Source of the DNA: an uncultured Clostridia bacterium | GTDB taxonomy: Bacteria > Bacillota > Clostridia > Oscillospirales > Oscillospiraceae | Direction: 5' to 3' | NCBI GenBank assembly: GCA_947168005.1 | Contig: CAMVKI010000001.1 | Span: 1-57,196, forward strand | DNA length: 57,196 bases | Part shown: positions 4,563-54,849 of the stretch, piece by piece | Numbering within the stretch: position 1 is the stretch's first letter | Layout of the letters: the number at the start of each line of letters is the position of its first letter | The notes under the pieces: generated by a model | Told to the model about the DNA's origin: nothing | Databases searched by the model: none | The model's input: only the letters and a program-made list of their open reading frames with translations | Translations under genes and position numbers: made by a program

Positions 4563-4613
4563 TGGTGCGGGCAACAGGACTCGAACCTGCATGGTTTCCC
4601 ACTGGAACCTAAA
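4563..4613 (-). tRNA. 3' portion (51 nt) of a split tRNA-Leu(UAG)
   Basis: The minus strand reads TTTAGGTT-CCAG-TGGGAAACCAT-GCAGGTTCGAGTCCTGT-TGCCCGC-ACCA. That covers the anticodon loop and 3' stem, a long variable arm, a T-arm with GGTTCGAGTCC, and an acceptor 3' strand plus CCA. There is no D-arm or 5' acceptor strand upstream of it. Confidence 0.85.
4606..4613. repeat. left copy of the 8-bp direct repeat AACCTAAA (attL/attR core)
   Basis: Identical octamer at 54810..54817. It lies exactly where the tRNA sequence ends. Confidence 0.75.
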
Positions 4614-4678
4614 GGCTAAGTCAACTCCGTGTGGAATCGGGTTTTGCTCGGCTTTTGTATGAGAATAAGGGACGGTTT

Positions 4679-5974
4679 TTACCGATTTATAGTCTCTATT
4701 GCCCAGAGCGGCAGATTTAGCAGCCAACCCTCGTCCTTGTAATCAGACATGGAGGTACGGATCGATTGCCGCGGCTGGAATTTTTCATGATAAACCTTCA
4801 AACTCTTCGCCTGCAGATTTGTTTCCGCTTTCACTTCGACCGGGAGGATCTCTTCGCCGTTGTCAATGACAAAATCAACCTCTGCGGTTGCGCGTTCCGC
4901 CGTCCAATAATAGATCTGCAGGCTGCTCTGCGTTTTCAGTTCCTGTAATACATATTGTTCGGTCAATGCGCCTTTGAATTCCCGGAACAGATCGTTTCCA
5001 TCGAGCAGCACGCTCTGCCGAAGTCCGACCATACAAGACAATAACCCAATATCCACAAGAAACAGCTTAAACGCTTTCAGATCCTCGTAGGCTTTGAGCG
5101 GAAGCAGCGGGGCGGAAACCCGATGGACCTTATGGATGAGCCCGCAATCCGCCAGCCAAAGCATGGCGAGCTCGTATTCCTTTGCCCTTGCGCCTTCCCG
5201 CACCAGGCCGTATATAAACTTCTTGTTTTCCTTTGCGAGCTGGGCGGGGATGCTGTTGAACAGCATCCGGATCCGCAGGACGACCTCGTTCGGCGCATGC
5301 TTGGAAAAATCCTGCTCGTAGGCGTCCAGGATCCGGCGCTGGATCTGCCGGACTTCGTTGAAGTCCTTGTGATCGGCAAAGGCCTGCACAGCCTCCGGCA
5401 TGCCGCCGACATAATAGTACTGCTTCAGGCATTCCACAAAGTCTTCCTTAAAGTTGGAGGCCATGCATAGATCCCGATCGCGGATCAGCCCCGCATGGGG
5501 AGCCTTTCCGATCGCCGTCAAAAACTCGGTAAAGGAGAGGGGGAAAAGATCCAGAAACTCCACCTTCCCCACAGGGAAAGATGTGCCCTGGTGAAGCGCG
5601 ACACCCAGGAGGGAGCCGGCACAAATGATTTGATACTGCGGGGCTTCCTCCTGAAAGTACTTCAACGCTGTCAAGGCGCGGGGGACTTCCTGCACTTCAT
5701 CAAAAATGAGCAGGGTCGTCTCCGGATCAATTTTATGCCCGGCAAAAAGTTCGAGCCCGACAAGCAGGCGTTCAGTCTGCAGGCTTCCCTCAAACAACTG
5801 CCGCATGGGGATGTTGTTGTCGAAATTGATATAGACGCAGGAATCATAAGCTGTTTTCCCAAACTCCCGCATCAGCCAGGTTTTTCCCACCTGCCTGGCG
5901 CCGCGGATGATTAGCGGTTTTCTGCCTTTCTTTTCTTTCCATTTGATCAACTGTTCCATTGCGCATCGATACAT
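4679..5974 (-). CDS. AAA-family ATPase with DUF4143-type C-terminal domain
   Basis: Walker A GARQVGKTW and Walker B LLIFDEVQ. About 430 aa with the COG1373-like architecture common on mobile elements. ATG at 5974 is preferred (GGTGAGG upstream). Confidence 0.75.
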   Translation of the reverse strand: MYRCAMEQLIKWKEKKGRKPLIIRGARQVGKTWLMREFGKTAYDSCVYINFDNNIPMRQLFEGSLQTERLLVGLELFAGHKIDPETTLLIFDEVQEVPRALTALKYFQEEAPQYQIICAGSLLGVALHQGTSFPVGKVEFLDLFPLSFTEFLTAIGKAPHAGLIRDRDLCMASNFKEDFVECLKQYYYVGGMPEAVQAFADHKDFNEVRQIQRRILDAYEQDFSKHAPNEVVLRIRMLFNSIPAQLAKENKKFIYGLVREGARAKEYELAMLWLADCGLIHKVHRVSAPLLPLKAYEDLKAFKLFLVDIGLLSCMVGLRQSVLLDGNDLFREFKGALTEQYVLQELKTQSSLQIYYWTAERATAEVDFVIDNGEEILPVEVKAETNLQAKSLKVYHEKFQPRQSIRTSMSDYKDEGWLLNLPLWAIETINR

Positions 5975-6117
5975 GGACCTCACCCCTTCCCTTGTCCTGT
6001 TTTATAGTATACCGAGTTTTTACAAAAAATCAAGCGACTTTTGCTTGATTGCTCACATTTTATCAAACCACTTACGCAAATACATTGATGTATTCAGCCA
6101 ACACTTGCTGTATTTCC

Positions 6118-6981
6118 TTATATTTCCCGCAATGGAAGATTCAGGAAGGATGCCTGAACCGAATATCGACAGGGGTCCTGGCGTTTACGATCCCGCAGGA
6201 TAACATCCTCCGGCAGCTCGTTCAGCCAGCGGCGGCTGAAGCTGGTGCTTCCAAAATATGCGTCAAAGTTGACAACGGGCAGGACGACCCACTCGCTGCT
6301 CTCCTGCATATGTGCCAGATAGTACTGAACCAGCGTAGGAAGCACTGTCTCCGGCACACCCTTCGGCGTCAGCTCCCGCAGGCGGGAGAGCATATCGGCA
6401 GAGAGCGGGACATCATATTTCCGCAGCGGTCCCCGCTCTTTGGCGTCTGCCAGCACATCGTCGAAACGAAGGACCCAACCGCCCTTTGTATCCCTGTGGA
6501 ACAGGGGAACCTGCAGCTGTGTCAGCTTATCGCGCCAGGCCTTCTCAAAGCCTGTTTCCAAAAGCACGCAGTTCTTATATGCCGGCGATGATATCAAGTC
6601 CGAATGGGCTTTGACGAAAGCGCAGATCCCTTTTACATGGCGAAACAGCCAGCCCCGGCCTTTCCCATCCACCAGCTCCGGAAACGCCTCGTGAAGCTCC
6701 GGAAAACACGTTTGATACTGCCAGTCCTCTCGGGGACTGGCTTTTTTCTTTTGCGGAAGACTGCACCAGGCGCAGAGCGCACGCCTAGCGAGATCAACAT
6801 CAGGCTCTTCGGTCTGCCACATATATCCCCTTGCAAGGATGGTCAGGATCCGGCCCAGGCCGTGGAATTCCAAAAGGATATCATAGGTAAAGCGGCCGAG
6901 ATAGCTGTTGTCCCGCTTCCCCTTGGCAGCATAGACGGGCGGCGCTGTATAAGCCCGGAATTCCTCAAACTCATTCAACAT
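6118..6981 (-). CDS. hypothetical protein, translationally coupled partner of the RdRP-like polymerase
   Basis: 287-aa ORF whose start overlaps the stop of the upstream 998-aa gene by 11 nt. No motif recognised. Confidence 0.6.
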   Translation of the reverse strand: MLNEFEEFRAYTAPPVYAAKGKRDNSYLGRFTYDILLEFHGLGRILTILARGYMWQTEEPDVDLARRALCAWCSLPQKKKASPREDWQYQTCFPELHEAFPELVDGKGRGWLFRHVKGICAFVKAHSDLISSPAYKNCVLLETGFEKAWRDKLTQLQVPLFHRDTKGGWVLRFDDVLADAKERGPLRKYDVPLSADMLSRLRELTPKGVPETVLPTLVQYYLAHMQESSEWVVLPVVNFDAYFGSTSFSRRWLNELPEDVILRDRKRQDPCRYSVQASFLNLPLREI

Positions 6982-9967
6982 ACCGCTTCACCTCCCGCAA
7001 CGTCTCCTCCGGGACCAGCGTCCAAAGCAGGTCCCGCCTGCCGAGCGCAACCAGATACCGAATCGCTAACCGGGCCTTCACAAGTAAAAGCAGCTTCCTG
7101 CGGCAGACCTTGGTGGGCTCTTCACTGTAATCCTTTGCGAAAGGCTCATCCGCATAGGCCTTTATCATTTCCCGGAACAGTGGGGAATCTCCCTTCCGAT
7201 ACAGCTGTTTCTGCTGCGCCTCACGCAGCCGGTCATCGGTATCACAGACAAGATCTCCCAGCACGCGATATCCGCCGAAACGGAAATCAAGGAAAAGCAT
7301 AAACCATTCCTCCAGCTCCGGAAGCTGGGCGTAGAGGAAGGCGAGGCGTTCATCACGATCCATCAGATGCCATTGCTGCTCTGTCAGCGCCAGCCGCAGA
7401 GCTGCGATCCGCTCGGGATGCAGCTCGGAAAAAGCGGCGTAAAGCTCATCCGGATCGTACTGCTCCTCCTGACCCCTGCTGTATAGAATCCGGTCGATAT
7501 CATTTTTCTTTGGCTTGATGCGGCTCGGAGAACGGTAATAACGGATGCGCCGCAATACAGAATCGTAAGTCTTCACCAAATCGGAGACTGAGGAAAGGAT
7601 TGCCGGATCCAGAAGTTCTTTCCAGTCAGGCCGTTCCGCAAACGCAAATAGCTCACTGTCCGAAGCGGGCTCCGGCTTCAGCCTCGGCGTCTGATCTTTA
7701 AGCTGCTTTGCAAGATAGGGCAATCTCTCCACGTTAGAGGTAATACTCTTCCAGTCTGTGATTTCAAAAAACAACCGCTTGTCCTTTCGGCGTTTTGCAG
7801 CAGACCAGGCATTGTCGCCGTCTTCATCCAGGATCGTCTTATATTGAAGAAAGGAGCTTCGCGGCTGTTTCCCCGGTCCAAGGTATTGAGACAGGATCGG
7901 CTTGACGCCGCTCTTGGCCGAGTCGATCTCCAGGCCGGTCAAAATCGCAAGGGTTTCCGTTTCTTCCCGGCAGCGCTGCCGTTCCAAAGCAGTGGAGTTT
8001 TCGTCGTATGCGACCACGCTTCGGTTGAAGGCGGCGTTGCAGATCTGCCCGACCCGGGAGGAGAAGGTATCCCGTACAGTCAGAAAGCGATCGTGCCAAT
8101 CGTTGGCATCCCGGATCACCGGATCCTCAGAGGGGATATACAAGAGCGGAAGATTATTGCTGTTGTCCAAAGAATTAAACTCATAATTGCGTTTGACGCA
8201 TTCGTTCAACAGTGGATCGGAGATCGTTTTGACCATATCGCCGTCATAGTCCGCCCCGCCCAGGCGTTCGGCAGCCAGCATCGCCGCGTCCACCATGACG
8301 ACACCGTGCAGATGCTTCAGGTAGAATTTTCGCATATTCTCGGCCTTGCCGTAAGCGGCAAGCTGGATTTCTTCATTCCGTGCGATATGCGGATTTCGCA
8401 GCAGGGTGCATACTTCACCGCTCGTATAAACAGCGCCTGGCGCATAAAACCCATTTTTAACAAATCGCCGCGTCATTGCCACACCAAAGAATGTGCGTTG
8501 GTCTTTTTTCTTTATTTCTAAATGTTCCACGTCGATCAACAGGCTCAGCATCTCCAAAAGGTCGCCGGACAAATACCGGTTGTCCCCGGCCACCGTCAAA
8601 TGGCCGACCGCGTACTCCCTTACGGTTTGATCTGCCGCGTCTGTCAGCTCCTTCACACAGACGGGCTCGTTGACCAACAGGTGATTTTTCTTAACACTGC
8701 GGCCCAGGGGCGTATCTTGCTCTGCAAAATACCGAATCCTGCTCTCTCGATCTGCACACAGATCATAGTATCGCTGCTCGGTGGCCTTCGTGATCCAATT
8801 CCTTGGATCCTCCGCCGGGCTGTGATCCCAGCCGTCCGGCAGATCCCAGGGGCGAAATTCTTCTGCCGTCATGGACAGCGTATTCAGAAACTGATAGTTC
8901 AGCTGTGTAAATGCTTCCGGCTTTGGCTTATTGACGTTTGTGATATACAGGGCGTGGTCGTATTTCCGAAACGTCTCCAGATAGTCCTCCCAGGTCTTTC
9001 CGTTTTCCGTGAGCCAGCCGTATCCTTTGAACATGCTTTTTGTCAGGATCATATCCACCTCAGCGACAGGGTGACGGACGCCGAATATATCCGTGATATA
9101 ATTGCTGCCGCTGCTTTTCAGAAAATCCTTGAAATCCACCTTGTGGACCATGCCCTTCACAAAAGGCATCCGGATCTGGAAAGAAGAATGAATATGCTTT
9201 CCGCAGTACTGCTTGTCAATCTGCTTTGCCAGCTCTTTGGAAATCAAGCCCTCGCCGTCAAAACGGGTGACAGTGAAATCCTTCATCTTTTCGACCCGAC
9301 GGTACTCCCGCATTGCGCCTTTGGAAGCCGCCTCGACTGTAATGACTTTGGCATTTGCTCGGAATTCAGCGTTCTTTACGACAACGACTCTGTGCGGCAA
9401 AGTCAGATCCACAGCGTCGATCCGTGTTCCGCCGGACAGCATCAGTCCGTTATAGGCGTAGAGCTTGGAGAGCTGACATTCCCCGACCTGCAGATCCTGC
9501 ATGATCCTGCGGCGCACTTCTTCGCAGACGTCCGCTCGAAGAAACGACAGCTTCGCCTCCCGGCTCATGTTGCCGGATCGCTCAAAGGCAAAGTATCGGT
9601 GTGGACCGCCGCCAAAATCCAGCGTGATCCCCTCCGGCCGGAACATGGCCTCTGCTTTTTTCTGCCGTTCAAGTTGTCGCTTTGAATTCCCTGTTCCGAA
9701 AATGCCGGAGAAATCCATATAGAAGATTACGTCGGAGAGAGAGATGACGACAGCGTCGTCCTTCGGAAGCGAAGGTTTCCCGCCCTCTATGACAGACAGG
9801 ATCTGATAGAACAGTGCATTGTCCTCCTGGGTCTTGGAAGCTGCTTTCAGGATGCAGTATTCAGTTCCGTTCTTGCTCAAATTGTAAGTGTACCCCACAT
9901 CCGTCTTCCTGGCATATCCCAGCATGGCGGAAGCGGACAGCATATGAATCTGATAACGCAGCGGCAT
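6971..9967 (-). CDS. eukaryotic-type RdRP / YonO-like two-barrel (DPBB) nucleotide polymerase homologue
   Basis: 998 aa with three motifs in the order and spacing of cellular RdRPs: SSFQIRMPFVKG (aa 261-272), LLRNPHIARNEEI (aa 522-534) and GGADYDGDM (D573/D575/D577, nt 8237-8251; DxDGD metal-binding signature). Confidence 0.7.
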   Translation of the reverse strand: MPLRYQIHMLSASAMLGYARKTDVGYTYNLSKNGTEYCILKAASKTQEDNALFYQILSVIEGGKPSLPKDDAVVISLSDVIFYMDFSGIFGTGNSKRQLERQKKAEAMFRPEGITLDFGGGPHRYFAFERSGNMSREAKLSFLRADVCEEVRRRIMQDLQVGECQLSKLYAYNGLMLSGGTRIDAVDLTLPHRVVVVKNAEFRANAKVITVEAASKGAMREYRRVEKMKDFTVTRFDGEGLISKELAKQIDKQYCGKHIHSSFQIRMPFVKGMVHKVDFKDFLKSSGSNYITDIFGVRHPVAEVDMILTKSMFKGYGWLTENGKTWEDYLETFRKYDHALYITNVNKPKPEAFTQLNYQFLNTLSMTAEEFRPWDLPDGWDHSPAEDPRNWITKATEQRYYDLCADRESRIRYFAEQDTPLGRSVKKNHLLVNEPVCVKELTDAADQTVREYAVGHLTVAGDNRYLSGDLLEMLSLLIDVEHLEIKKKDQRTFFGVAMTRRFVKNGFYAPGAVYTSGEVCTLLRNPHIARNEEIQLAAYGKAENMRKFYLKHLHGVVMVDAAMLAAERLGGADYDGDMVKTISDPLLNECVKRNYEFNSLDNSNNLPLLYIPSEDPVIRDANDWHDRFLTVRDTFSSRVGQICNAAFNRSVVAYDENSTALERQRCREETETLAILTGLEIDSAKSGVKPILSQYLGPGKQPRSSFLQYKTILDEDGDNAWSAAKRRKDKRLFFEITDWKSITSNVERLPYLAKQLKDQTPRLKPEPASDSELFAFAERPDWKELLDPAILSSVSDLVKTYDSVLRRIRYYRSPSRIKPKKNDIDRILYSRGQEEQYDPDELYAAFSELHPERIAALRLALTEQQWHLMDRDERLAFLYAQLPELEEWFMLFLDFRFGGYRVLGDLVCDTDDRLREAQQKQLYRKGDSPLFREMIKAYADEPFAKDYSEEPTKVCRRKLLLLVKARLAIRYLVALGRRDLLWTLVPEETLREVKRYVE

Positions 9968-10087
9968 TTATATCACCCCTTTCTCTGGCATGATCATATC
10001 ACAAAAACCCTCAAAATGCAACATAGATACTGCTCCCGCATTTTTCATCCACGGGAGTAAATTTATATCTATGAGAGGATTTTTACC

Positions 10088-11851
10088 ATGGATGATTTCA
10101 ATCGTTACTCCCCGCGCTTCAAGCTTGTGGACGGCTGCCTGACCGAGATCCATATGACACGGTCCGGCCCTGCCGAAAGGAAGCTGTGCAACTTCGCGCC
10201 GTATCTGACTGAAGAGATCACGTTGGATGACGGTGTGGAAACCAGCTCCCGGATCAAGCTTCGGGGCACACATCAGAACGGCAGAGAACTGCCGGAAATC
10301 GAAATTGCCGGCAGCGATCTCCCGGCCTTCAACTGGCTGCCGGATCATTGGGGTATGGACTGTATTCTGGAAGTCGGCAAGAACATCAAAGAGCTTGTCC
10401 GCTACGCGATCCAGACCACCGCAGACCATGCCGAACGGAAAACGGTCTACACCGTGACCGGGTGGAAGAAGATCGAGGGGCAGTGGGAATTCCTGCTGCC
10501 GGGAGACGATGCCCACACGGTCAAGCTGCCCGGAAAGCTCCACGGCTTCCGGGCTGAGGCGAAAGCGTCTGCGGAAGAGCTGTCCCTTCTGCGAATGCTT
10601 TTGACAAACGGGCCGGCAGAAAAGGAGATCCTGCTTCCCCTGCTGGCGCTGACCTTCCTCTCGCCGCTCAATCACTTCCTTGCGCTGGCAGAATGCGAAC
10701 CGAAGTTCGTTCTGTTTCTGATCGGCAAGACCGGCTCCCGCAAGAGTACGTTGGCAGCTCTGATGCTGTCCTTCTTCGGAAGGTTTACGGCAACAGAGCT
10801 GCCCATGTCGTTTCAGGACACGGCGTACAGCATTCTATATCACGCGTTCTCCCTCAAGGACGTGCTGACCTGCGTCGATGACTTCCACCCCGCATCCCGG
10901 TTCGAAGAAGCGAAACTGACGGCGACGGCGCAAACCGTCTTGCGAGCCTTCGGCGACCGCGTCGGCAGAGGCAGACTGCGGCCGGATGTCACGCCGATGG
11001 AGGCAAGGCCGCCCCAGGGCAACGCGATTGTCACGGCGGAGTTTCCGCCCGACATCGGAGAGAGCGGAACCGCCAGATACTTCGCGTTGGAAATGAACGC
11101 CAAAAGCGTTGACCTGAACCGCCTCTCGTTTTTCCAGGCGCAGGCAGCGCAAGGCGTTCTCGCCCGATGCATGCGTTCCTATCTGGAATGGCTCCGGGGC
11201 GTCTTCCTTCGACGGGAAGAAAGTGAAAAGAGTTTTCTCTTTCTTCTGAAGGACAGCTTTCAAAGCTACCGGGATGAATTCCGGGCCAGCGGGATCGCCT
11301 GTCATGGAAGAGTCGAGGAGACTGTCGCCTGGCTTCGGATCGGTATGGATTATCTGCTGCGCTTCCTTTTGGATGCGAATGTCCTGGGGCAGGCTGAAGC
11401 GAAGCAGCTCGGGGACGAGCATGAAGCTCTGCTGTATCAGCTCGCAGCCAAACAGGCGGAGAGCATCGCGGAAGACCGGCCGACGCAAAAGTTCCTGCGC
11501 AAGCTCCATGCGCTGCTGGAAGCCGGACAGGTTTGTCTTCTGCCGAAGGACTCCTGTGAAGAGTATCCCCCAAGCAACTGTGTCGGCCGCGAGGACGATA
11601 CCTATTGGTATCTGTTCGGGGACATTGCGCACAAGGCGGTACGGGAATGGTGCGAGAGACAGGGAGAGTCCTTTTCCGTTTCCTGCAAGGGCCTGCTCAA
11701 AGCCTTGGCAGAGGAGGGATACCTGGAGCCCGCCCAGGGACAGAACACCCGCGCAGTCCGTCTCGGCGGGAAACCGAAACGTGTCGCCTGCCTGTGGAAG
11801 GATAAGATCCGTACCGTAACGGAGGCAGGCTTATTCACGGAAAACGTGTAA
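10088..11851 (+). CDS. P-loop NTPase, putative DUF927/Cch-like replicative helicase
   Basis: 587 aa. P-loop LIGKTGSRKSTLAAL and Walker B VLTCVDDF in the middle of the protein. Good RBS (GAGAGGA). The size and its position upstream of the serine recombinases match DUF927 helicases of integrative elements. Confidence 0.5.
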   Translation: MDDFNRYSPRFKLVDGCLTEIHMTRSGPAERKLCNFAPYLTEEITLDDGVETSSRIKLRGTHQNGRELPEIEIAGSDLPAFNWLPDHWGMDCILEVGKNIKELVRYAIQTTADHAERKTVYTVTGWKKIEGQWEFLLPGDDAHTVKLPGKLHGFRAEAKASAEELSLLRMLLTNGPAEKEILLPLLALTFLSPLNHFLALAECEPKFVLFLIGKTGSRKSTLAALMLSFFGRFTATELPMSFQDTAYSILYHAFSLKDVLTCVDDFHPASRFEEAKLTATAQTVLRAFGDRVGRGRLRPDVTPMEARPPQGNAIVTAEFPPDIGESGTARYFALEMNAKSVDLNRLSFFQAQAAQGVLARCMRSYLEWLRGVFLRREESEKSFLFLLKDSFQSYRDEFRASGIACHGRVEETVAWLRIGMDYLLRFLLDANVLGQAEAKQLGDEHEALLYQLAAKQAESIAEDRPTQKFLRKLHALLEAGQVCLLPKDSCEEYPPSNCVGREDDTYWYLFGDIAHKAVREWCERQGESFSVSCKGLLKALAEEGYLEPAQGQNTRAVRLGGKPKRVACLWKDKIRTVTEAGLFTENV

Positions 11852-12020
11852 CATCCGTTACAGGATCAAAAATCCCTTGCGCCGTCTCAAAAATCTCTGA
11901 TCCCCAACAGTGACGCAGACGATACGCAGGCGTTACGTGTAACTGCTCCGTATCGCCTGCGTTACTGAAATGCAGAAGCCGAAAACCCTTGCCCGGACTG
12001 GGTTTTCGGCTTCGTGTAAC
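11845..12020. repeat. cluster of GTAAC/GTTAC pentamers and inverted repeats (candidate origin or operator region)
   Basis: GTAAC-N4-GTTAC (11848-11861), GTTAC-GT-GTAAC (11932-11943), GTTAC (11961-11965) and GTAAC (12016-12020). CGTGTAAC occurs three times. ACGCAGGCG (11924-11932) pairs with CGCCTGCGT (11954-11962). Confidence 0.3.
11978..12010 (+). terminator. hairpin after the helicase-like gene
   Basis: GCCGAAAACCC / GGGTTTTCGGC form an 11-bp stem followed by TT. Confidence 0.4.
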
Positions 12021-12454
12021 TGATAAAACGCCAACTGAAACCCAACAGCGTCAAGGGCCGTGTCAGGCCCGTCGTGGCCCTGTGTGCGGTTTTCTTTCGC
12101 AGGACGGAAAAGTACTCGGCGGCAGAGGAAAAGACGGCTTGCGCCGAACACAGTGCGATTTGTCAGATTGTACAATTCGCCAATGGCCCGGGCCCTTTCG
12201 ACCGCCCAGGGACGGTCGAAAAGAAGCAGGAAAAAGCGGTGGGGTCGTTACACCCCCCGCGGTCCACAGCGGACGGCAACGCCGACCGCGGAACCCCCAT
12301 TTTTGCGAGGGTTTTGGCCTCGGCCTGTTGAGTTTGCACAAAGGCGTCAAACTTGTCAAGTCACACCGGTTCAGTGTGACGCAAGGCCCGGGAACAGCCC
12401 TGTTTCGGCGGTTTCTTGGGTATGATAATCAGAAAATGAAAGGAATTCATCTTT

Positions 12455-12910
12455 ATGAGCAGCAAAGCTAACAACCCAACAAACGCGATCCGCACCTCGA
12501 TCTATATCGACGAGGGGCTGATCAAGAAAGCGGAAATCCTCTACGGAGAAGCGGACGTCACGACCTTCTCCCAGTTCGTTCGCAAGGCTGTGGAGAGCTA
12601 CATCGACCAGCTGCTCCTTGGAAATCACAGTCCTGAGCTGACGAAATCCATTCGCAAGGCTCTGGCCGACGAGGTCAAGCCCATCGCAGTCCGGCTTTCG
12701 AAGGCGCTCTATCGCTACGCCATCGAGCTGGATATGCTGACGCAGGTGATGGCCTACGCGGAGATTCCCTACGACGCGATGGACGAGATCCGGCGGGAAG
12801 CCAACCAGCGTGTCGCCAGAATGCGCGGCGCCGTCGATCTCAATGTGCTCTTCCAGGAAGAGCGTTACAAACAGATCCTGCGTGATCTCGAGGAGGATGG
12901 AAACGGATGA
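12455..12910 (+). CDS. ribbon-helix-helix (CopG/Arc-like) DNA-binding protein
   Basis: 151 aa. The N-terminal segment IRTSIYIDEGLIKKAEILYGE...FSQFVRKAVESYI fits a beta-strand/helix/helix RHH pattern. RBS GAAAGGA. Confidence 0.55.
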   Translation: MSSKANNPTNAIRTSIYIDEGLIKKAEILYGEADVTTFSQFVRKAVESYIDQLLLGNHSPELTKSIRKALADEVKPIAVRLSKALYRYAIELDMLTQVMAYAEIPYDAMDEIRREANQRVARMRGAVDLNVLFQEERYKQILRDLEEDGNG

Positions 12911-12994
12911 ACACAACAAAACACATGCCTGCGGGCGGCTTCCGGATGCGGAGGCCGCCCATTTTGTATTTCCGGAGAAAGGAGCGGAAGGACT

Positions 12995-13165: not shown

Positions 13166-13236
13166 TTCTTTGCGCTCGCTATTCAGAAAACACTGTGATA
13201 TGGTTCGGTTGAAAACCGAACCGGAAAGGAAACGTT

Positions 13237-14853: not shown

Positions 14854-14857
14854 GGAA

Positions 14858-46277: not shown

Positions 46278-46293
46278 AGGTTACCTATCTGTA

Positions 46294-46421: not shown

Positions 46422-46423
46422 GT

Positions 46424-47284: not shown

Positions 47285-47285
47285 G

Positions 47286-49346
47286 TCAGCCTCGCTCAGA
47301 TAAGTAGATTTCGATCCGGTTCTGGATTCGTCGGGCGCATTCCTCTGCGGTAACGTCGCCGTTGAAATAAGCTTCCGCCTCTTCCAAAATGATCTGCTCC
47401 GGCTCGCCCAGGAGCGGGTCCATCAGGTGATCCGCATTCAGAAGCAATTCGCGCAGCTCTCTGGCGTCCTGTTCGAATTCATCGGTCGGATTCTGGGAAA
47501 CCCGTCGCTGAAGGAACTCGTCCAAGTGTGAAAGGTTGACCGGGAATTCGGATCCAAAGTCTGCGGGCACCTGCGGTTCGTCGAACCACTCCTCGTCGGC
47601 AAACAGGAAATCCATAAAAGCCTGGCCGCCCGAAGTATTGGAGCCGTTTACGATAGCGTAGAAGCCCATGCTATTCAGACCCAAGCCGGTGTAAGAGCCC
47701 ACGGGGAAGGGGAACAGCGTGCGGGCCTGCGTTTTCTTCAGGGGATCGTCATGGACCTTATAGTAATAATTTCCCAGCCAGAGCTCTTCGTAGATCTGGA
47801 ACCACTCTTTTCCGGCGTTGTAGTAGGCGCCGCCGTTGATGGAGGCAGTGTATTCGTCGTCCTCGAAGCGGTTGCAGAATTCCAGCGCCCCGCGGAAGGA
47901 ATCGGTGTTGAAGCGGGCGGTGCGGGTCTGCCAGTCGATCCAGCCGCTGCCGCATTGGTTCAGAATATTTTGCAGGACGATGTATTTTGCGTTGCTTTCA
48001 AAGGTCTCCGGGCAGTTGGCCTCGATCCGGGAGATCAAACGCTCCAGATCGGCGACGTCGCCCGCGCTGACGTAGGACGCCGGGATGCTGCAGCACACCA
48101 GCTCCACCTCCCGGGGCAGATAGACGCAGGCGCCGTCCACCGTGCAGAGGGGGACCAGGTTGGGCAGGACCCGGGCCGTGGTCGTCTCGTCGATGGGGGC
48201 CAACAGCCCCTTGACCGCGTAGTTGTTCAGCGCGTCCAGATCCGAGGAACAGATCAGGTCCAGCTCGCCGTTCAGCATGGCCAGGTTCATGCTTTCCAGA
48301 TCCTCAAAGGTCCTGGTCGTCACCTGCCAGCCGGTATCGGCCAGGTTGAAGGCCGCGATCGCCTGGCTGCAGTGATAATCCGGGTGATAGAGTCCGATGG
48401 TCAGTGTATCGCCTTTGTTTTCGCTTGGGTCCACGTGTACCAGACGGTCCCAGTCCATCACCAGGAAGGTCCCGTCCTCGAGGGCAAGGATGGTCGAAAA
48501 CTTTTCAAAATCGAGGCCCCAGGCGGCCAGATCGCAGAGCTCGGTCACGTTGGTCCCGTCCGTCTCATACAGCTTCGATCCGGAGAGCACCCAGGTCCCG
48601 GCGTCGTTCCAACAGGCGCGATCTACCAAGATGGGGAATTCCGACTCCGGCAAGCTCAGTTGGGTGGTGGTTCCGTCGATGGGACACAGCCATCTGCCCA
48701 CAGACGTGCGCTCATCCGTCCCTTGTACCTCTGTCCAGGCCGTCACCATCGCAAAGGTTTGACCGTTGATCTGGAGGACGCAACGCACCCAGAAATTCGC
48801 GCCCGGCTGGTCCGGCATCTCGACCTCGTTTTTTCCGCACCAGAGCCGAAGAAAATGAACTGTATAGAGGGTGTCGTCCGCCCATGCAAGCTGCATCAAG
48901 GCAGGATCACGCTCTGTCTGCATCATGAACTCACCGTCACAGTAAACGCCGCAGCCGTAGTTCGCACTCTCCATATCCCCATCATTCTCCAAGGTCCAGC
49001 GGTGGCCGCCGGCCTCCAAAATGCGGTACGGAGAAGGGTCTTCCTTTGACAGGTCGACGGTCTCGCCGACGGTCAGGTTTTCATCCAGCGTCGTCAGATG
49101 CCACCCCCATATATCGACAGAAAGCAGCAGATACCCCCCTTCGGTGGGACAGATATCCAGCAATCTATGTCCGCTCAGCCGGACTTCCTTCGGCAGCTCG
49201 AGCTTGTCAGAGGCGGGGGGCTCCGCAGCGTCGGGCATCGTGACAGTCTCTCCGGGAGCTGCGGGCTGATCCGGGTTTCCGCAGCCGCTCAACAGCAGCA
49301 GAAGGGTCAGAAGAAGTGCTGTCATTCTGATCAATCGTTTTTTCAT
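47286..49346 (-). CDS. lipoprotein: N-terminal beta-rich domain fused to an extracellular solute-binding domain
   Basis: Lipobox LLLSGCG. 686 aa. The C-terminal half has an SBP-like pattern (LNGELDLICSSD...NYAVKGLLAPID). Paralogue of 50539..52644, with near-identical C-termini (DVTAEECARRIQNR.EIYL.ERG). Confidence 0.65.
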   Translation of the reverse strand: MKKRLIRMTALLLTLLLLLSGCGNPDQPAAPGETVTMPDAAEPPASDKLELPKEVRLSGHRLLDICPTEGGYLLLSVDIWGWHLTTLDENLTVGETVDLSKEDPSPYRILEAGGHRWTLENDGDMESANYGCGVYCDGEFMMQTERDPALMQLAWADDTLYTVHFLRLWCGKNEVEMPDQPGANFWVRCVLQINGQTFAMVTAWTEVQGTDERTSVGRWLCPIDGTTTQLSLPESEFPILVDRACWNDAGTWVLSGSKLYETDGTNVTELCDLAAWGLDFEKFSTILALEDGTFLVMDWDRLVHVDPSENKGDTLTIGLYHPDYHCSQAIAAFNLADTGWQVTTRTFEDLESMNLAMLNGELDLICSSDLDALNNYAVKGLLAPIDETTTARVLPNLVPLCTVDGACVYLPREVELVCCSIPASYVSAGDVADLERLISRIEANCPETFESNAKYIVLQNILNQCGSGWIDWQTRTARFNTDSFRGALEFCNRFEDDEYTASINGGAYYNAGKEWFQIYEELWLGNYYYKVHDDPLKKTQARTLFPFPVGSYTGLGLNSMGFYAIVNGSNTSGGQAFMDFLFADEEWFDEPQVPADFGSEFPVNLSHLDEFLQRRVSQNPTDEFEQDARELRELLLNADHLMDPLLGEPEQIILEEAEAYFNGDVTAEECARRIQNRIEIYLSERG

Positions 49347-49376
49347 AGATAATTCCTCTTATGCGCGTGATTTGGC

Positions 49377-50522
49377 TCAACCCTCGGCAAAGCCGGCGAA
49401 AATCGTGGGTTCTCCTCGGAGCACGTCTATGGAGACCAATTCCACCTGAAGCGCCAGCTCTTCCAGGAGCGCTTCTACCTCCGCGCCGCTGCGATCAGCG
49501 GAAAGGAAGAGCATGGGCCCGTCTTCATACAGGCAAATCAAACAGGCCTCATCGCGCACAGTGTACCAACGGGCCTCCCGGCCGTTCAGGGTCCCGGTGC
49601 GGATCAGCTGAAACCCGCTCGTTCGTTCAAAGTCAACGAAGGAGGCATATACGTAGAGCGAAATCCACAGTCCGTCCGTCGGACGGATCAGAGCAAGCTG
49701 GCTGTACAGCCCGCTCAGATCCGTCTCCGGGGCCTTCAGCTGGTTGCCATACATAGTGTCTTCCTGAAGCCCTGTGAAATCCCAGTAGATCTCAAAACCC
49801 TCCGGCAGCTCCGGCAGCCGCAGAGGGTAGAAGGTCGTCACTTCCCGCCGGATCGGCACCCCGGAGTCCACCAGCGTCAGGTGGGAGAGGGCCTCCTCGC
49901 AGCGCTCGAAGCTCCGGTTGGAGCTGACCACAAGCGTGCAGCGCAGCGCCTCGCTGTGACAGAAGAGGTGGTAGGTGTCTTCCGAAACGCCGAATGATTG
50001 ACTGACGACCGTAACCCAAACAGTTTCCAGGTCCTGCAGCGTGCCCTCCTTCACCATCTCCGGCTCATAGAGGACGAAATAATCCCGATAACTCAGCCCG
50101 TCCCGATCCAGGATATTGACGGAGAGCTTCTCACCATCCGGCGTAATTGGGAAGTACTGCGTGTAGACCTCCCCAAGGGCTTCTGGGTTCAACACAGTCT
50201 GGGAATCGGCCTGTCGGTTTGCCGCGAGTCTCTTCAGCATTTTGTTGTACATGCCGCCATTCCGGTCCGGCAAGGACCATCCGTCCAAGGTGAAGCCGAT
50301 ATAGTTGCCCTCTCCCGTGTCCACAAACATCGTTTCGTTCTGCCGAGCAGGGCCGGAGCTTGCTCCGCTTTCCAATTGATTTGGATCTGTAACGTCCGCG
50401 ACAGATCCAACCGGGTCTTGTTCCGTTGTCACCGGAGTCTCCGGCGTACCGCAGCCGCTCAACAGCAGCAGGGCTACAAACAGAAGTGCAAGAAAAGCGT
50501 GATATTCAGAGTGATATTTCAT
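49377..50522 (-). CDS. hypothetical lipoprotein, paralogue of the anti-sigma ectodomain
   Basis: Lipobox LLLSGCG. Shares blocks with 52668..53930 (T.HLFC..AL.CTLVVSS.R.F.RCEEA..HL.LVD.GVPIRR; ARWY). Confidence 0.6.
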   Translation of the reverse strand: MKYHSEYHAFLALLFVALLLLSGCGTPETPVTTEQDPVGSVADVTDPNQLESGASSGPARQNETMFVDTGEGNYIGFTLDGWSLPDRNGGMYNKMLKRLAANRQADSQTVLNPEALGEVYTQYFPITPDGEKLSVNILDRDGLSYRDYFVLYEPEMVKEGTLQDLETVWVTVVSQSFGVSEDTYHLFCHSEALRCTLVVSSNRSFERCEEALSHLTLVDSGVPIRREVTTFYPLRLPELPEGFEIYWDFTGLQEDTMYGNQLKAPETDLSGLYSQLALIRPTDGLWISLYVYASFVDFERTSGFQLIRTGTLNGREARWYTVRDEACLICLYEDGPMLFLSADRSGAEVEALLEELALQVELVSIDVLRGEPTIFAGFAEG

Positions 50523-50538
50523 AAGCTGTTCCTCCGTG

Positions 50539-52644
50539 TCAGCCGCGTTCTGCCAGATAGATCTCCACCCGGTTCTGGATGCGGCGGGCGCATTCCTCGG
50601 CGGTGACGTCGCCGTTGAAATAGGGCTGGGCCTCTTCCAGGATGACGGATTCGAGTTCGGTGGTGGTCGCGGAAAGGAAATGATCGGCCTGCTCCAACAG
50701 GGTCATCCAATCGGAAAGGTCCCGGGAGATATTCGGATCCGTCATGGCGTCCCCGTAGAGGGAAAGGTGCTTCTCGATCAAGGCGCGGCAGTGGTCCTCC
50801 TGGACCGGCCACCGAGCGTCGTAGATCTCCCGGTTGGTCACGGGCTCGTCATACCATTCAGTCTCGGAGAACAGGAATTCAAAGAAGGCCTTCGCGCCGG
50901 ACAGCCCGTCTCCGTCCACCATGGCGTAGAAGCTGCCCACATGCATGGACAGGCCGCTGTGATCCGCCGACGGGAAGGGGAAGAGGACCTTGGCCTTCTT
51001 TCCGGTCTCGGGATCGTCCCGGACCTTCATGCCGTAGGTGTTTTCCTGGACTTGGTCATTGACCGTAAAATAGCCGATCCCGGCGTTGTAGTATCCGTTA
51101 CGGTTGGCGTTAGCCTCGTCCTGACTGTCCTCGAAGCGATCCGCGAAACGAAGCAGGGTCAGGAAGGAGGCGTCGGTAAAGTACGCGGTGCGATTTTCCC
51201 AGTCGATCCAGCTGTCGGAACACTGGGACACGGCCCAGCGGAAGATGTTTTCCTTGGTGTCGCATTCCCAGCTCTCGGGGCAGGCCCGGTCGATCAGGGC
51301 GGCGAGCCGATCCAGATCGCGCAGGTCCGCCGGGTCCGTCACGGCTGCGGCAGGAATGGAGCAGCAGCTCAGGTACCGGATCTCCCGGGGCAGACAATAG
51401 CAGACGCCCCTGTCCGAACAGGCGGCGACCACCTTGGGCAGGATCCGGTCCGTGACGGCGCTGTCGATGGGGGCCAGCAGACCCTTGGAGGCGTAGTTGT
51501 GCAGGAGCTCCGCATCCTTGAGATAGAGAAGGTCCAGCTCCCCGTTCAGCAGGGCGAGGTTCAGGGTCTCCGGGTCGGAGAAGCTGCGGGTGTTGATCCG
51601 CCATCCGGTCCCGGCCCGGTTGAAGGCCGTGATATCCTCGGTGCAGCGATAGTCCTCTAAGAGATAGCCCATGGTCAGGGTCTGACCTCCGGCGCGGCGG
51701 GGGTCCACGTGGAGCACGCAGTCCGGCTCCACCGCCAGGAAGCTCCCGTCCGGGCAGGCCAGCAGCCGCTTCAGAACGGAGAAGGAGCAGTCCACTCCCA
51801 GGGCTCCTAGGTCGCAGACCTCCTCGCAGCTCAGGCCGTCGGTCTTGAATAGCTTGGAGCCGGCAAGCAGCCAGGCCCCGTCCCCGTACCAGCAGGCTTG
51901 GAAGGCGTCTGCGGGGAGGGCGACGGTCTGTTCCGGCAGGCTCAGCTTCTCCGTGTCAGGATCAACGGGACAGAGCCAGCGTCCGGCGGAGCCGCCGTCG
52001 CCCCAGCCCGAGAGCAGGGCATACATCTGATCCCCGGCCCGGACGACGCAGTTCACGTTGTAGCGGACGCCGCCGGTCTGGGGCAGCTCGATCTCCCGCT
52101 GGCCGATCCAGAGCCGGAAGTCGTGGACGGTGTAGAGGGTCCCGTCCTCCCATGCCAGCTGGCCGAGGCTCAGCATCTCTCCCACCCGTACCCAGGGTTC
52201 GCCGTCCCGGAAAACCCAGACTCCCTGGGGCTCCGAACTGTCGCTGAGGACCCAGAGGCTGCCGTCGGCCCGGAGGACGGCAGTGGGATCATAATCGTCC
52301 ACGCGCTCGGAGTTTACGGGCTCCAGCTTTTCGTTGAGCGCGGTCAGGAAGGTCCCGTAGCGCTCTCCCTCGGCGGGTTCCAACGGATCGCCCTCCCAGG
52401 CCAGCAGCCAGCCCTCCTCCGTGGAGCAGAGATCCAGCATCGTCCGGCCCTCCAGCTCGAACACGTCGGGCAGCCCGCTCTCCGGGGCCTGGGTCTCGCT
52501 GCTCTGGCCCCCCATGGTCACCACGGGGCCGGAGCCGTCGGCAGGGGCGGTACTGCGTTCGCTTTCTTTCGTCTCGCCGCCGCAGCCTGTCAGAAGCAGC
52601 AAAGCGGCGAGGAGGAACGCAAAGAATCTGGTCTGATTTTTCAT
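50539..52644 (-). CDS. lipoprotein: N-terminal beta-rich domain fused to an extracellular solute-binding domain (paralogue 2)
   Basis: Lipobox LLLTGCG. 701 aa. Collinear with 47286..49346. Confidence 0.65.
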   Translation of the reverse strand: MKNQTRFFAFLLAALLLLTGCGGETKESERSTAPADGSGPVVTMGGQSSETQAPESGLPDVFELEGRTMLDLCSTEEGWLLAWEGDPLEPAEGERYGTFLTALNEKLEPVNSERVDDYDPTAVLRADGSLWVLSDSSEPQGVWVFRDGEPWVRVGEMLSLGQLAWEDGTLYTVHDFRLWIGQREIELPQTGGVRYNVNCVVRAGDQMYALLSGWGDGGSAGRWLCPVDPDTEKLSLPEQTVALPADAFQACWYGDGAWLLAGSKLFKTDGLSCEEVCDLGALGVDCSFSVLKRLLACPDGSFLAVEPDCVLHVDPRRAGGQTLTMGYLLEDYRCTEDITAFNRAGTGWRINTRSFSDPETLNLALLNGELDLLYLKDAELLHNYASKGLLAPIDSAVTDRILPKVVAACSDRGVCYCLPREIRYLSCCSIPAAAVTDPADLRDLDRLAALIDRACPESWECDTKENIFRWAVSQCSDSWIDWENRTAYFTDASFLTLLRFADRFEDSQDEANANRNGYYNAGIGYFTVNDQVQENTYGMKVRDDPETGKKAKVLFPFPSADHSGLSMHVGSFYAMVDGDGLSGAKAFFEFLFSETEWYDEPVTNREIYDARWPVQEDHCRALIEKHLSLYGDAMTDPNISRDLSDWMTLLEQADHFLSATTTELESVILEEAQPYFNGDVTAEECARRIQNRVEIYLAERG

Positions 52645-52667
52645 AATGTCTCCTCTCGGTTCTTGTA

Positions 52668-53930
52668 TCAGCCCATGGCCAGGCCGTGAAATTCGATTGG
52701 CGCATCCTGGATCACGACAACAGGCACGGGCTCAAGCAGGGCCGCGATCTGCTCCAGCTCGCCGGGGTGCAGCTCCGTTTCTTTTTGACTTGCCCGGATC
52801 TCCACCTCGCAGCCCAGGTCCTCGTACCAGATCACCAGGATCGTGCTGGGCGGGCCCTGGGTCTTCAGGTTGTAGTCGATATAGTTGATATTCCGATACC
52901 AGCGGGCTTCATGGCCGTCGATCTCCCCGGTTTTGATCAGGGTCGCGCTCTGGGATCGGGTGTAATCGAAGCGTTCTCCCCGGACGGAAATGTTCAGGCT
53001 GGAGCCGTCGGTTCTGGAGAGGATCTGGTCCGCCCAGAGCCCTGTCAGGTCCTGGGTTGGGTCAGCCAGGGTCGCGTTCAGCAGATCCTCGGAGAGGGGC
53101 ACACTGTCCCAATAGCGGAGGCCCTCCGGCAGCTCCACCCTGCCCAGACCGAAAACGGTTTTCGTGTCGCTCCGCCGGATGGGGACGCCGGTGTCCACCA
53201 GGCGCAGATGGGCGGCGGCCTCCTCGCAGCGGGCGAAGTCCCGGCTGGAGCTGACGACCAGGGTGCAGCCCAGGGCGGCGTCCCGGCAGAACAGGTGCCA
53301 GGTGTCCCCCAGGCCCGGCTCCACAATCCGCAGCCAGGCCACGTCCAGCCCGTTCAGGCTCCCCTCCTTGACCAGCTCTGTCTCGTAGCGGGTGAAATAG
53401 CTCCGGTAGCCGACGCCCGTGCGGTCCAGCATTTCCACGCAGAGCAGTTCCCCGTCGGGCGCGGCGGCAAAGTAGCGCTGATACACGGCCTCCGCGTTGT
53501 CCGAAAGCGCTGCGTTCTGCGCGAGGCCGTGGTAATCCAGCCAGCTTTGCATGGAATTGGTGCCGCGGGTGTCCGCGCCGGGGATGGAAAAATCGTCCAT
53601 GGTAAAGCCAACGTAGGTCCCCTGACCCGGATCGTCGATTTCAATTCCGGCCTGTGGCTTCGGCGGATCGGTGGGCTGGACCGGTCCGTCCACCTCTTTT
53701 TGGGGGCGCTCCGTGAGGGTCGGCTCTTGGGTCAGGCGGAACCAGTGCGAGACCGCGTAAACCGTACCGCCCAGCAACAGAATGACCACGGCGGCTACGG
53801 CGATCAGCGCACTGAGCCGGATCGATACTCTGCGCTTTGGGTGCTCTTTTGGGATCTCCAATAAACGATCGACAGCCTCTTTGGAAGGCTGGATCTTGGA
53901 AAATGCTGCGCGATATTGTTCTTTTGTCAT
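52668..53930 (-). CDS. putative anti-sigma factor with a large extracytoplasmic domain
   Basis: Lies directly after the ECF sigma gene (1-nt gap). Short cytoplasmic N-terminus, TM helix LSALIAVAAVVILLLGGTVYAV, and an ectodomain of about 350 aa. Confidence 0.55.
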   Translation of the reverse strand: MTKEQYRAAFSKIQPSKEAVDRLLEIPKEHPKRRVSIRLSALIAVAAVVILLLGGTVYAVSHWFRLTQEPTLTERPQKEVDGPVQPTDPPKPQAGIEIDDPGQGTYVGFTMDDFSIPGADTRGTNSMQSWLDYHGLAQNAALSDNAEAVYQRYFAAAPDGELLCVEMLDRTGVGYRSYFTRYETELVKEGSLNGLDVAWLRIVEPGLGDTWHLFCRDAALGCTLVVSSSRDFARCEEAAAHLRLVDTGVPIRRSDTKTVFGLGRVELPEGLRYWDSVPLSEDLLNATLADPTQDLTGLWADQILSRTDGSSLNISVRGERFDYTRSQSATLIKTGEIDGHEARWYRNINYIDYNLKTQGPPSTILVIWYEDLGCEVEIRASQKETELHPGELEQIAALLEPVPVVVIQDAPIEFHGLAMG

Positions 53931-53931
53931 G

Positions 53932-54411
53932 TTACTCGCCCTCCGTTAACTCAGATTTCAAGCGTTTTCGTCCCCGGACCAGCCGCATCTTGACCGACGC
54001 CTGGCTAATGTTCAGCAAATCTGCAATTTCTTTGACTGGCAGATCTTCGTAGTAGTACAAATGGATGACGGCGCGCAGGGGTTCGGGTAGACGCAAAACG
54101 GCGGAGATCAGATCAAGGTCCTCCGGTTCCGTGGCTGTTGTGCCAAGGGCCTCCAACTCCTCAATGGAGAGGGGCTCCCGAGCCCGGGCCCGCAGCAGGC
54201 TGCGACTCTCATTCACCGTCACCTTGGTCAGCCATTTGTCCAAGTGGGTCTCGTCAGTGAAGACTACAGGATGCTTCCACAGCTTGAGAAAAACCGTCTG
54301 CATCACGTCTTCCGCGTCCTGCCGCTGCCGTGTGAAGGACAGGGCCAGCAGGAAGACCCGTTGGCTGTTCCGCTTGACCGCCTCCGTATAGATTTGTTGA
54401 TCCAAAATCAC
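53932..54411 (-). CDS. ECF-type sigma-70 family RNA polymerase sigma factor
   Basis: 159 aa (GTG start). Region 2 AEDVMQTVFLKLW and region 4 HTH LPVKEIADLLNISQASVKMRLVRGRKRL. Confidence 0.8.
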   Translation of the reverse strand: MILDQQIYTEAVKRNSQRVFLLALSFTRQRQDAEDVMQTVFLKLWKHPVVFTDETHLDKWLTKVTVNESRSLLRARAREPLSIEELEALGTTATEPEDLDLISAVLRLPEPLRAVIHLYYYEDLPVKEIADLLNISQASVKMRLVRGRKRLKSELTEGE

Positions 54412-54604
54412 ACCACCTGCCTTAATATGAAAAACGACTTTGAACGACTTTGAAAAGTCCTTTCACTTATTTAACGCTTGAGCAACGAAAAAGGTAACAT
54501 CATAAAAATAGTTTTTCAGGAAATATAATAACACAACCAGGGCGGATGTAAAACCCCGCCCTGGTTAGATGATAAGCATGTTTAGTTAGTCGAATATTTG
54601 CAAA

Positions 54605-54639
54605 CAGAAAAGCCAGCCGCAATGCAACTGGCTTTTCTG
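54605..54639 (-). terminator. hairpin downstream of the island-borne tRNA-Leu
   Basis: CAGAAAAGCCAG / CTGGCTTTTCTG form a 12-bp stem. On the minus strand it is followed by TTTG, 25 nt after the tRNA CCA end. Confidence 0.45.
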
Positions 54640-54663
54640 TTGCTCTGGGGCAGCCCAGGCCAA

Positions 54664-54746
54664 TGGTGCGCCCGAGGGGACTCGAACCCCTACGCCAAGG
54701 CAATGGCTCCTAAGACCATCGTGTCTACCAATTCCACCACAGGCGC
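54664..54746 (-). tRNA. tRNA-Leu(UAG), complete, carried inside the island
   Basis: The minus strand reads GCGCCTG-TG-GTGGAATTGGTAGACAC-G-ATGGT-CTTAGGA-GCCAT-(variable arm)-AGGGGTTCGAGTCCCCT-CGGGCGC-ACCA. 83 nt, with acceptor, D, anticodon and T stems all pairing, and the anticodon loop CT-TAG-GA. Confidence 0.9.
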
Positions 54747-54809
54747 ATATTCACTCTTTCAGGGGGAATGGTGGAATAGAGAAAGGAAAAACCTTCCCGG
54801 AGGTGACAC

Positions 54810-54817
54810 AACCTAAA
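54810..54817. repeat. right copy of the 8-bp direct repeat AACCTAAA (attL/attR core)
   Basis: Identical to 4606..4613. Confidence 0.75.
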
Positions 54818-54849
54818 TCCAGCGTGTCTGCCAATTCCACCATGCCCGC
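54810..54849 (-). tRNA. 5' portion (40 nt) of the split tRNA-Leu(UAG)
   Basis: The minus strand reads GCGGGCA-TG-GTGGAATTGGCAGACAC-G-CTGGA-TTTAGGTT and then diverges (GTGTCACC...). GCGGGCA is the exact complement of TGCCCGC in the 3' part at 4563..4613. Confidence 0.85.

Follow-up and report, generated by a model that had tools for sequence, protein, structure and literature searches.

The closest described system to the locus studied here is the tRNA-dependent lysogeny of actinobacteriophages, reported for Fionnbharth/K4, cluster L, and Gaia, in which a phage-encoded tRNA that matches the disrupted host gene in isotype is required for lysogens to be viable (Guerrero-Bustamante and Hatfull 2024; PMC10865867). 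The authors of that study leave the prevalence of the strategy outside the actinophages open, citing only the Lj965 prophage of Lactobacillus johnsonii. In classical tRNA islands, as outlined in PMC4383910, integration is carried out by tyrosine integrases, the element's attachment site (attP) carries the 3′ part of the tRNA, and the gene is regenerated. We describe here a stretch of 57,196 nucleotides from an uncultured Clostridia bacterium of the Oscillospiraceae (assembly GCA_947168005.1, contig CAMVKI010000001.1; hereafter "the window"), in which a tRNA-Leu(UAG) gene is split by ~50.2 kb of inserted DNA. Our model, to which we assign a probability of roughly 0.85, is that of an integrative island of the large-serine-recombinase (LSR) type that splits the tRNA-Leu(UAG) gene of its host and brings its own tRNA-Leu(UAG).

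Both pieces of the host gene lie on the minus strand. The 5′ part (54810..54849; read from 54849 to 54810, GCGGGCATGGTGGAATTGGCAGACACGCTGGATTTAGGTT, 40 nt) comprises the acceptor strand, D-arm, and 5′ anticodon stem and loop, and the 3′ part (4563..4613; read from 4613 to 4563, TTTAGGTTCCAGTGGGAAACCATGCAGGTTCGAGTCCTGTTGCCCGCACCA, 51 nt) comprises the 3′ anticodon stem, variable arm, T-arm, 3′ acceptor strand, and CCA. An 8-bp core, TTTAGGTT, is common to both junctions (54810-54817 and 4606-4613). A first-pass annotation, made by reading the letters alone, had given these two pieces and the shared 8 bp, and its coordinates and readings match ours exactly. When 4614..54817 (50,204 bp) is deleted in silico, ARAGORN reports a single tRNA-Leu(tag) of 83 nt; its 7-bp acceptor stem is perfectly paired, its variable arm is long, the discriminator base is A, and it ends in CCA. 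The identical 83-nt sequence is an intact gene in an Oscillospiraceae metagenome-assembled genome (locus L015) and scores 55.3 bits against the Rfam tRNA model, for which the gathering score is 29; each fragment by itself scores below this value, in line with the annotation's remark that neither piece folds alone. Chance cannot account for pieces of 40 and 51 nt that together form a perfect class-II cloverleaf.

No functional tRNA is rebuilt by the insertion: ARAGORN and Rfam find none at either junction piece, and beyond the 8-bp core the element side is non-tRNA at both attL and attR, where a classical island would have an intact hybrid tRNA at a junction. The signals of the original gene are still in place. 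Twelve nucleotides upstream of the orphaned 5′ half is a promoter (54861..54889, minus strand) that matches the consensus at 11 of 12 positions; it reads TTGACA-17 nt-TATGAT and has a TG extension. In L015 and L114, the same tRNA is preceded by promoters of similar sequence, TTGACAAAT...TATGAT. The native terminator hairpin (4503..4537, minus strand; -33.7 kcal/mol, z = -7.2, followed by a U run) lies beyond the 3′ part, so the two signals of the original gene are now 50 kb apart. Directly upstream of the promoter, before the terminator of the fruA gene, a perfect 28-bp tandem repeat is present in 2.9 copies (TTCTCTGCTGAGGCCGACGGGCAAACAT; 54895-54975).

The host tRNA is not simply lost, since the island supplies a complete substitute at the junction. 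This second tRNA-Leu(UAG) gene (54664..54746, minus strand; Rfam tRNA, 56.2 bits) is the sole intact tRNA that ARAGORN finds in the unedited window. It starts 63 bp downstream from the orphaned 5′ half, in the same orientation and on the island side of the crossover. The annotation was right about the split and the island and did not mention this gene. Its acceptor stem (GCGCCTG), variable arm, and anticodon stem-loop (ATGGT-CTTAGGA-GCCAT) are all unlike those of the split gene, which makes it a separate gene rather than a repaired copy. The substitute accompanies the element in four further loci (L114, L128, L155, and L168), all with unrelated host flanks, and the only promoter-like site upstream of it is the host promoter. 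Out of ten types of substitute tRNA, the type found in the window and these four loci (C32, A38, loop CTTAGGA, and a different stem) is the only one without the GATTTAGGTTC target. Loss of this target may, as a hypothesis, protect the substitute from self-targeting or re-targeting.

The spacer between the 5′ half and the substitute has a feature of its own: At 54769-54778 (minus strand), it holds ATTCCACCAT, the exact reverse complement of ATGGTGGAAT in the 5′ half (54834-54843). The motif is also near-complementary to the start of the substitute tRNA, occurs as a G-U-compatible variant (ATTCCATCAT) in L168, and is missing from L015. The fold of the 5′ half together with the spacer is no more stable than that of shuffled sequences (z = -0.8), and we do not propose a structured leader.

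The element side of attL begins with a predicted recombinase-binding arm, the P′ half-site (GTGTCACCTCCGGGAAGGTTTTTC; 54786..54809, minus strand), which is unique in the window and conserved across the family described below. The P half-site at attR (ACACGGAGTTGACTTAGCC...; 4614..4633, minus strand) is an inverted repeat of the P′ arm around a central TT. The orphaned 5′ half, including the core, is the attB-derived side of attL. Joining the element-side sequences of attR and attL rebuilds an attP that reads ...TTGACTTAGCC-TTTAGGTT-GTGTCACCTCC... around the core. Its best dyad is centered within the 8-bp core, at the second and third T, which correspond to U33-U34 of the anticodon loop. The left arm (ACACGGAGTTGACTTAGCCT) and the reverse-complemented right arm (TCCCGGAGGTGACACAACCT) match at 14 of 20 positions, a value equaled by three of 20,000 flank shuffles. 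The sequence shared by attP and attB is just TTTAGGT(T). LSR attachment sites are short, with dyad-symmetric arms around a central dinucleotide and little identity between attP and attB, and from this architecture we read the ends of the island as LSR att sites.

The island also encodes two candidate enzymes of this type. LSR1 (13237..14853, plus strand; 538 aa) and LSR2 (14858..16147, plus strand; 429 aa) are full length, lie in tandem, and contain the Resolvase, Recombinase, and Zn_ribbon_recom domains. Both have the N-terminal YxRLS motif (YYRLSRD in LSR1; YARLSND, with the expected catalytic serine, in LSR2). A Phage_integrase domain (PF00589) was found in none of the ~60 island open reading frames (ORFs) scanned. 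Given the dyad attP, the two LSR genes, and no Phage_integrase domain, we take the 8 bp to be the short stretch of attP/attB identity around the crossover; on the same grounds, two other explanations of the 8 bp, a target-site duplication and a decayed tRNA copy, were set aside.

Homologs of both recombinases recur beside the substitute tRNA in other loci. Homologs of LSR2 (52-56% identity) adjoin the substitute tRNA in nine (L152, L137, L154, L134, L142, L147, L124, L131, and L170), and in the first five of these a homolog of LSR1 (63-69%) follows, in the order and orientation of the window. Altogether, at least 12 loci have an LSR2-like and then an LSR1-like gene after the tRNA, antisense to it, arranged as in the window. 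In L152, L137, L134, and L142, the pair lies 1-3 kb from attL. From this association and the domain content, LSR1 and LSR2 are probably the acting integrases. Among phage records LSR1 has at most 32% identity to any protein, and among plasmid records one match is a Subdoligranulum "plasmid" contig (54% identical) with neither a tRNA nor a junction nearby. A third, distinct LSR occurs in L015 (2158-3870, minus strand; 570 aa, 27-29% identical to LSR1 and LSR2), 50 bp past a substitute tRNA that is identical to the disrupted host tRNA of the window; a homolog of this protein (39%) lies upstream of the junction in L140.

How widespread the arrangement is was assessed in genomes and metagenomes. 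When one genome per species was scanned with the 5′ half as query, at least 120 loci were obtained. Among the matches listed, 117 out of 120 have an ordinary intact tRNA, L114 has the split junction of the window, and L015 has a related junction followed by an intact tRNA with an adjacent LSR gene. A degenerate pattern of the element side of attL (TTTAGGTNNTGTCNCCTCNGNGAAGGTTTTTC) retrieved 51 metagenome contigs, many of them labeled human gut; the junction pattern had no match in IMG/VR. The 51 contigs together with L015, L114, and the window make up a set of 54 loci. Wherever the full 32 nt upstream of the junction are present, which is the case in 53 loci including the window, they contain a tRNA-Leu 5′ half ending ...GA, and these halves comprise 23 distinct sequences. 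An intact tRNA-Leu(tag) follows downstream in 47 out of 54, in the same orientation and 64-2,700 nt away; five of the seven loci without it have <420 nt of downstream sequence. Beyond the tRNA, L152 carries, after its LSR pair, genes for a MobA/VirD2 relaxase, a MobC/NikA protein, and an AAA_25 protein. In L170 and L125, what appears from unscanned sequence to be a type I restriction-modification system separates the tRNA from the LSR gene; the cargo at this position in L170 amounts to 13 kb. Taken together, the sequences indicate that the element family is widespread in Oscillospiraceae and related Clostridia of the gut and rumen and that the window holds a cargo-swollen member. The annotation's proposal of an island in the anticodon loop, delimited to the base, is thus borne out by the attP dyad within the core and by 53 other contigs with the same junction. 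Its contrast with the usual tRNA 3′ end applies to tyrosine-integrase islands; here the island is of LSR type.

From these data, we propose that the attP of the element recombined with an attB in the anticodon stem-loop of the host tRNA-Leu(UAG) gene. Judging by the dyad symmetry, the crossover would lie at the central TT, U33-U34 of the loop, and the catalysts would be LSR1 and/or LSR2, as their association with the junction across loci suggests. With just TTTAGGT(T) shared by attP and attB, the host tRNA is split and not rebuilt. Compensation would come from the element's complete tRNA-Leu(UAG) gene 63 bp inside attL. This gene is probably read from the host promoter as a precursor containing the dead 5′ half, which RNase P and 3′ processing would then convert to the substitute tRNA. 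CUA codons need the UAG anticodon. The cell would then be reliant on the tRNA of the element, unless precise excision restored the original gene.

Many loci hold more than one junction. Units of [5′ half + P′ arm + spacer] are repeated in 27 out of 54 loci, and the 54 loci contain 112 junction-like units. Within the arrays, the spacer is 100-180 bp, and up to eight units precede a single intact tRNA-Leu(tag). In L154 (rel 0 to +1284), seven units at ~216-bp spacing stand before one intact tRNA; L148 has eight units, L122 also has an array, and in L145 a distance of 267 bp separates two exact junctions. The window is a single unit, with no second P′ arm or further tRNA fragment at up to three mismatches. 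Moreover, the tRNAs reduced to 5′ halves in one locus are present as intact substitutes in another. This suggests that the arrays arose by serial, "leapfrog" integration of each element into the tRNA of the previous one, followed by loss of the element body; the tRNA-proximal stub would have been kept because it holds the sole live gene. On the left-hand side, intact elements nested in one another would look the same, and the loci are too short to separate the two. We lean slightly toward a view of the whole family in which the anticodon loop of tRNA-Leu(UAG) is a near-universal landing site, the junction tRNA is the payment, and serial re-invasion leaves the arrays of 5′ halves. If this is true, an array is a readable history of invasions, an essential host tRNA gene is continually swapped for horizontally acquired copies, and the junction tRNA of each element makes the host dependent on that element.

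Two relatives show both ends of an element. L155, like L128 and L114, shares the attL, substitute tRNA, and attR of the window at 97% identity, and its element of 8.9 kb (rel -32 to +8959) has both att ends within an unrelated host flank. Homology between L155 and the window ends exactly at both tRNA ends; the 5′ half of the L155 host differs at position 7, and its P arm at attR is that of the window with one mismatch. This both-ended version in another host, together with the high frequency of intact tRNAs among the listed species-level genomes, lends further weight to the island inferred by the annotation. L155 is collinear with window positions 54850-54595, 38605-38017, 35034-34608, 33002-32824, 29795-28548, and 6113-4563, and is without 38606-54594 and 6114-28547, the latter segment containing the LSR pair. 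The shared collinear blocks and the missing segments indicate that the island of the window is a cargo-rich mosaic on a common backbone. The second relative, L135, is a 1.4-kb miniature with both ends, whose attP (GGTGACATCACCT-TT-AGGTGATGTCACC) is a near-perfect palindrome, with arms matching at 20 of 22 positions around the same TT. An exact search for the P arm in 171 loci gave no match; under looser criteria, attR was detected in L135 and the window only, that of L155 being seen through alignment. Both L155 and L135 have the two att sites and the substitute tRNA and are without LSR genes, and they may be non-autonomous elements mobilized in trans.

L155 is also central to the alternative that survives best, namely that the island is a dead composite relic: a past serine-recombinase integration that is now an immobile accretion on a backbone as non-autonomous as the LSR-less L155 element, with an LSR pair that came from a nested module and has ceased to act on the ends of the island. 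A shared set of ends and backbone without any LSR gene is what such a history would leave, and the LSRs of the window do lie inside the 22-kb block missing from L155. The strongly heterogeneous GC content, the lack of a relaxase or transfer gene among the scanned ORFs, and the many family members shrunk to ~200-bp scars fit it as well. However, neither att site is damaged and the core is identical at both; the two LSR genes are complete and retain their catalytic motifs; and, relative to the tRNA, the pair is ordered and oriented as in the compact family members. The cargo between tRNA and LSR genes in L170 is a further parallel that argues against a relic, and overall we regard this explanation as unlikely, if still to be taken seriously.

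Several observations nevertheless weigh against an LSR-type island that supplies its own tRNA. LSR genes usually adjoin attP, and in the window they are 8.6 kb from attR and 38.6 kb from attL, so the expected integrase gene next to attP is not seen here. Because the pair sits in the block absent from L155, it could have originated as a nested module; L155 would be either a deletion derivative needing mobilization in trans or a backbone that predates the LSR-bearing module, and this is the main uncertainty over which protein moves the window element. No free attP (circular junction) was seen among the fetched loci, nor did a recombination directionality factor come to light. That the host promoter drives the substitute tRNA is a deduction from the arrangement of the sequence, which we consider somewhat favored. 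Reliance of the host on the element tRNA, in turn, would hang on the copy number of tRNA-Leu(UAG) in a host represented by one contig.

The flanks of the island likewise gave no empty site. On one side are two radical-SAM genes, a nitroreductase gene, and a TetR gene, and on the other is the fructose phosphotransferase gene fruA. The annotation had taken these flanks for core genome, a view that the relatives do not establish for either side: Sequences with 90-95% identity to FruA and ~90% to TetR hold these genes in other contexts with no tRNA-Leu beside them, and homology to the window ends at the gene borders. Among the relatives checked (FruA at 95% and 92%, L172-L174; TetR at 91%, L175-L178), an empty site with the flanks of the window was not found, a further point against the model, and an exact look-up of the window TetR and FruA proteins returned no record. 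Homologs of the TetR gene (3436-4155) at ~85-97% protein identity are present in very many Oscillospiraceae and some Lachnospiraceae contigs; those looked up lie beside radical-SAM and nitroreductase genes, as at window 2035-3458, in differing genomic contexts. The operon at 2035-4155 may itself be horizontally mobile rather than core genome.

The other alternatives fare much worse. Tandem tRNA genes are common in Firmicutes, and the tRNA at 54664-54746 lies at the very edge of the inserted DNA; it might then be the host's own second tRNA-Leu gene, the island having struck the first copy. Yet this tRNA is on the element side of the crossover; together with the P′ arm it recurs at 93-97% identity in the unrelated flanks of L114, L128, L155, and L168; the arrangement is repeated in 47 out of 54 loci with many different tRNA pairs; and the 5′ half has its counterpart in the host 3′ half 50 kb away, which does not match the tRNA at 54664-54746. 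A tandem host copy is thus very improbable.

Scarcely better placed, and in our estimate a shade less probable still, is a classical tyrosine-integrase island of the anticodon-loop sublocation class with a decayed attP. Anticodon loops are a known sublocation for tyrosine integrases (Williams 2002, as cited in PMC12884075), and tRNA-dependent lysogeny, with its ~10-bp core, uses tyrosine integrases (PMC10865867). The absence of a Phage_integrase domain from every scanned ORF, the simple dyad of attP with its central dinucleotide, which is a serine-integrase architecture, and the co-occurrence of LSR pairs with the junction across the family all speak against it. Finally, an assembly chimera, conceivable for a single metagenome-style contig, has a negligible probability given the same attL in the independent assemblies L114, L128, L155, and L168 and the same attR in L155.

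The body of the element (4614..54809, ~50.2 kb) is a mosaic with a GC content of 0.44-0.68, as heterogeneous as the annotation had described it. The recombinases that it listed are present as the two LSRs; its "replication-type genes" were not confirmed, the one find being a weak Pfam match to an RNA-dependent RNA polymerase (RdRP). The cargo comprises ABC transporters, a two-component system, BlaI/BlaR1, a serpin, sigma factors, an AAA_14/DUF4143 ATPase, and the RdRP-like ORF, and many ORFs are unannotated. No relaxase, phage structural gene, or tyrosine integrase was detected among the scanned island ORFs, nor any capsid, tail, terminase, or lysis domain, a result that is not absolute given the many unannotated ORFs. 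Comparison of the L152 relaxase, MobC, and AAA_25 proteins against the window gave no match, and an NCBIfam scan of ten unannotated island ORFs gave nothing useful.

Several cargo genes deserve separate mention. The RdRP-like ORF (6971-9967, minus strand; 998 aa) matches PF05183, the eukaryotic-type RNA-dependent RNA polymerase (E = 1.9e-14), in two stretches, the best covering residues 164-364, with no NCBIfam match. Its neighbors are unannotated ORFs and the AAA_14/DUF4143 ATPase gene (4679-5983), and it could be a defense module. Four consecutive large ORFs (47286-53930, minus strand; 686, 381, 701, and 420 aa; GC 0.57-0.65) belong to no Pfam or NCBIfam family and lie downstream from a sigma-70/ECF-like gene (53932-54411) and upstream of ABC-permease genes; the 16-kb block that holds them (38606-54594) is absent from L155. 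The serpin is full length (25969-27306, minus strand; Pfam E = 8e-87), and the BlaI/BlaR1-type repressor and sensor-protease pair is at 22760-24029 (plus strand).

If the model is right, it has several consequences. An essential tRNA gene would be open to repeated horizontal replacement, which bears on tRNA phylogeny, and the locus is relevant for island-finding software that expects a restored tRNA and a 3′ fragment. A junction tRNA that probably captures the host promoter would be a compact design, usable in integration vectors. The attB consists of a conserved 20-30 bp of an essential tRNA common to many Oscillospiraceae and Lachnospiraceae, and the cognate LSR pair could for this reason serve as a landing-pad tool for genetically intractable gut anaerobes.

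Compared with classical tRNA islands (Islander/TIGER and the Williams 2002 classes), the window has the tRNA target, the displaced fragment at the island end, and, in the family, the stacking of fragments on reuse of the site. It differs in that the insertion regenerates no gene and instead brings an entire new one, and in that the stacked relics are 5′ halves. The likeness to the serine-recombinase integrative and mobilizable elements (IMEs) of Firmicutes lies in L152, whose LSR pair, relaxase, MobC/NikA protein, and AAA_25 protein form a typical IME module; unlike IMEs, the window island has no detectable relaxase or MobC.

LSRs also drive the integration of phiC31, Bxb1, SPbeta, and skin, of Tn5397 (TndX) and Tn4451 (TnpX), and of SCCmec, by the CcrA/CcrB pair. 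With these elements the window shares the Resolvase, Recombinase, and zinc-ribbon domains, the short dyad att sites with a central dinucleotide, and a target that is split and left unrepaired, and its two-recombinase pair recalls CcrAB of SCCmec. It departs from the usual LSR element in that its LSR genes are far from both ends. To our knowledge, no LSR element described so far combines a target in a tRNA anticodon loop with a substitute tRNA of its own, and the literature that we searched, with incomplete coverage, contained no report of a serine-recombinase element that has either.

The strongest parallel is with tRNA-dependent lysogeny (PMC10865867), in which attB is likewise located within a host tRNA gene, frequently at the anticodon loop, ~8-10 bp are shared, and the tRNA is not rebuilt; the tRNA-Leu(tag) borne by our element, on its own side of the crossover, completes the likeness. 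The two systems differ in their enzymes, the lysogeny phages using lambda-like tyrosine integrases with arm-type sites in place of an LSR pair. They differ also in the kind of element, since those are temperate phages, whereas the window has no phage genes detected in its scanned ORFs and no IMG/VR match. Finally, the phage tRNA lies elsewhere in the genome with its own demonstrated promoter (PMC10865867), whereas that of the window lies 63 bp from the crossover, behind a host promoter. If our reading is true, the strategy of disrupting a tRNA gene and bringing one's own would not be confined to actinophages with tyrosine integrases but would also occur in islands of gut Clostridia that use serine recombinases and are apparently not phages, which would suggest that it has evolved independently in the two.

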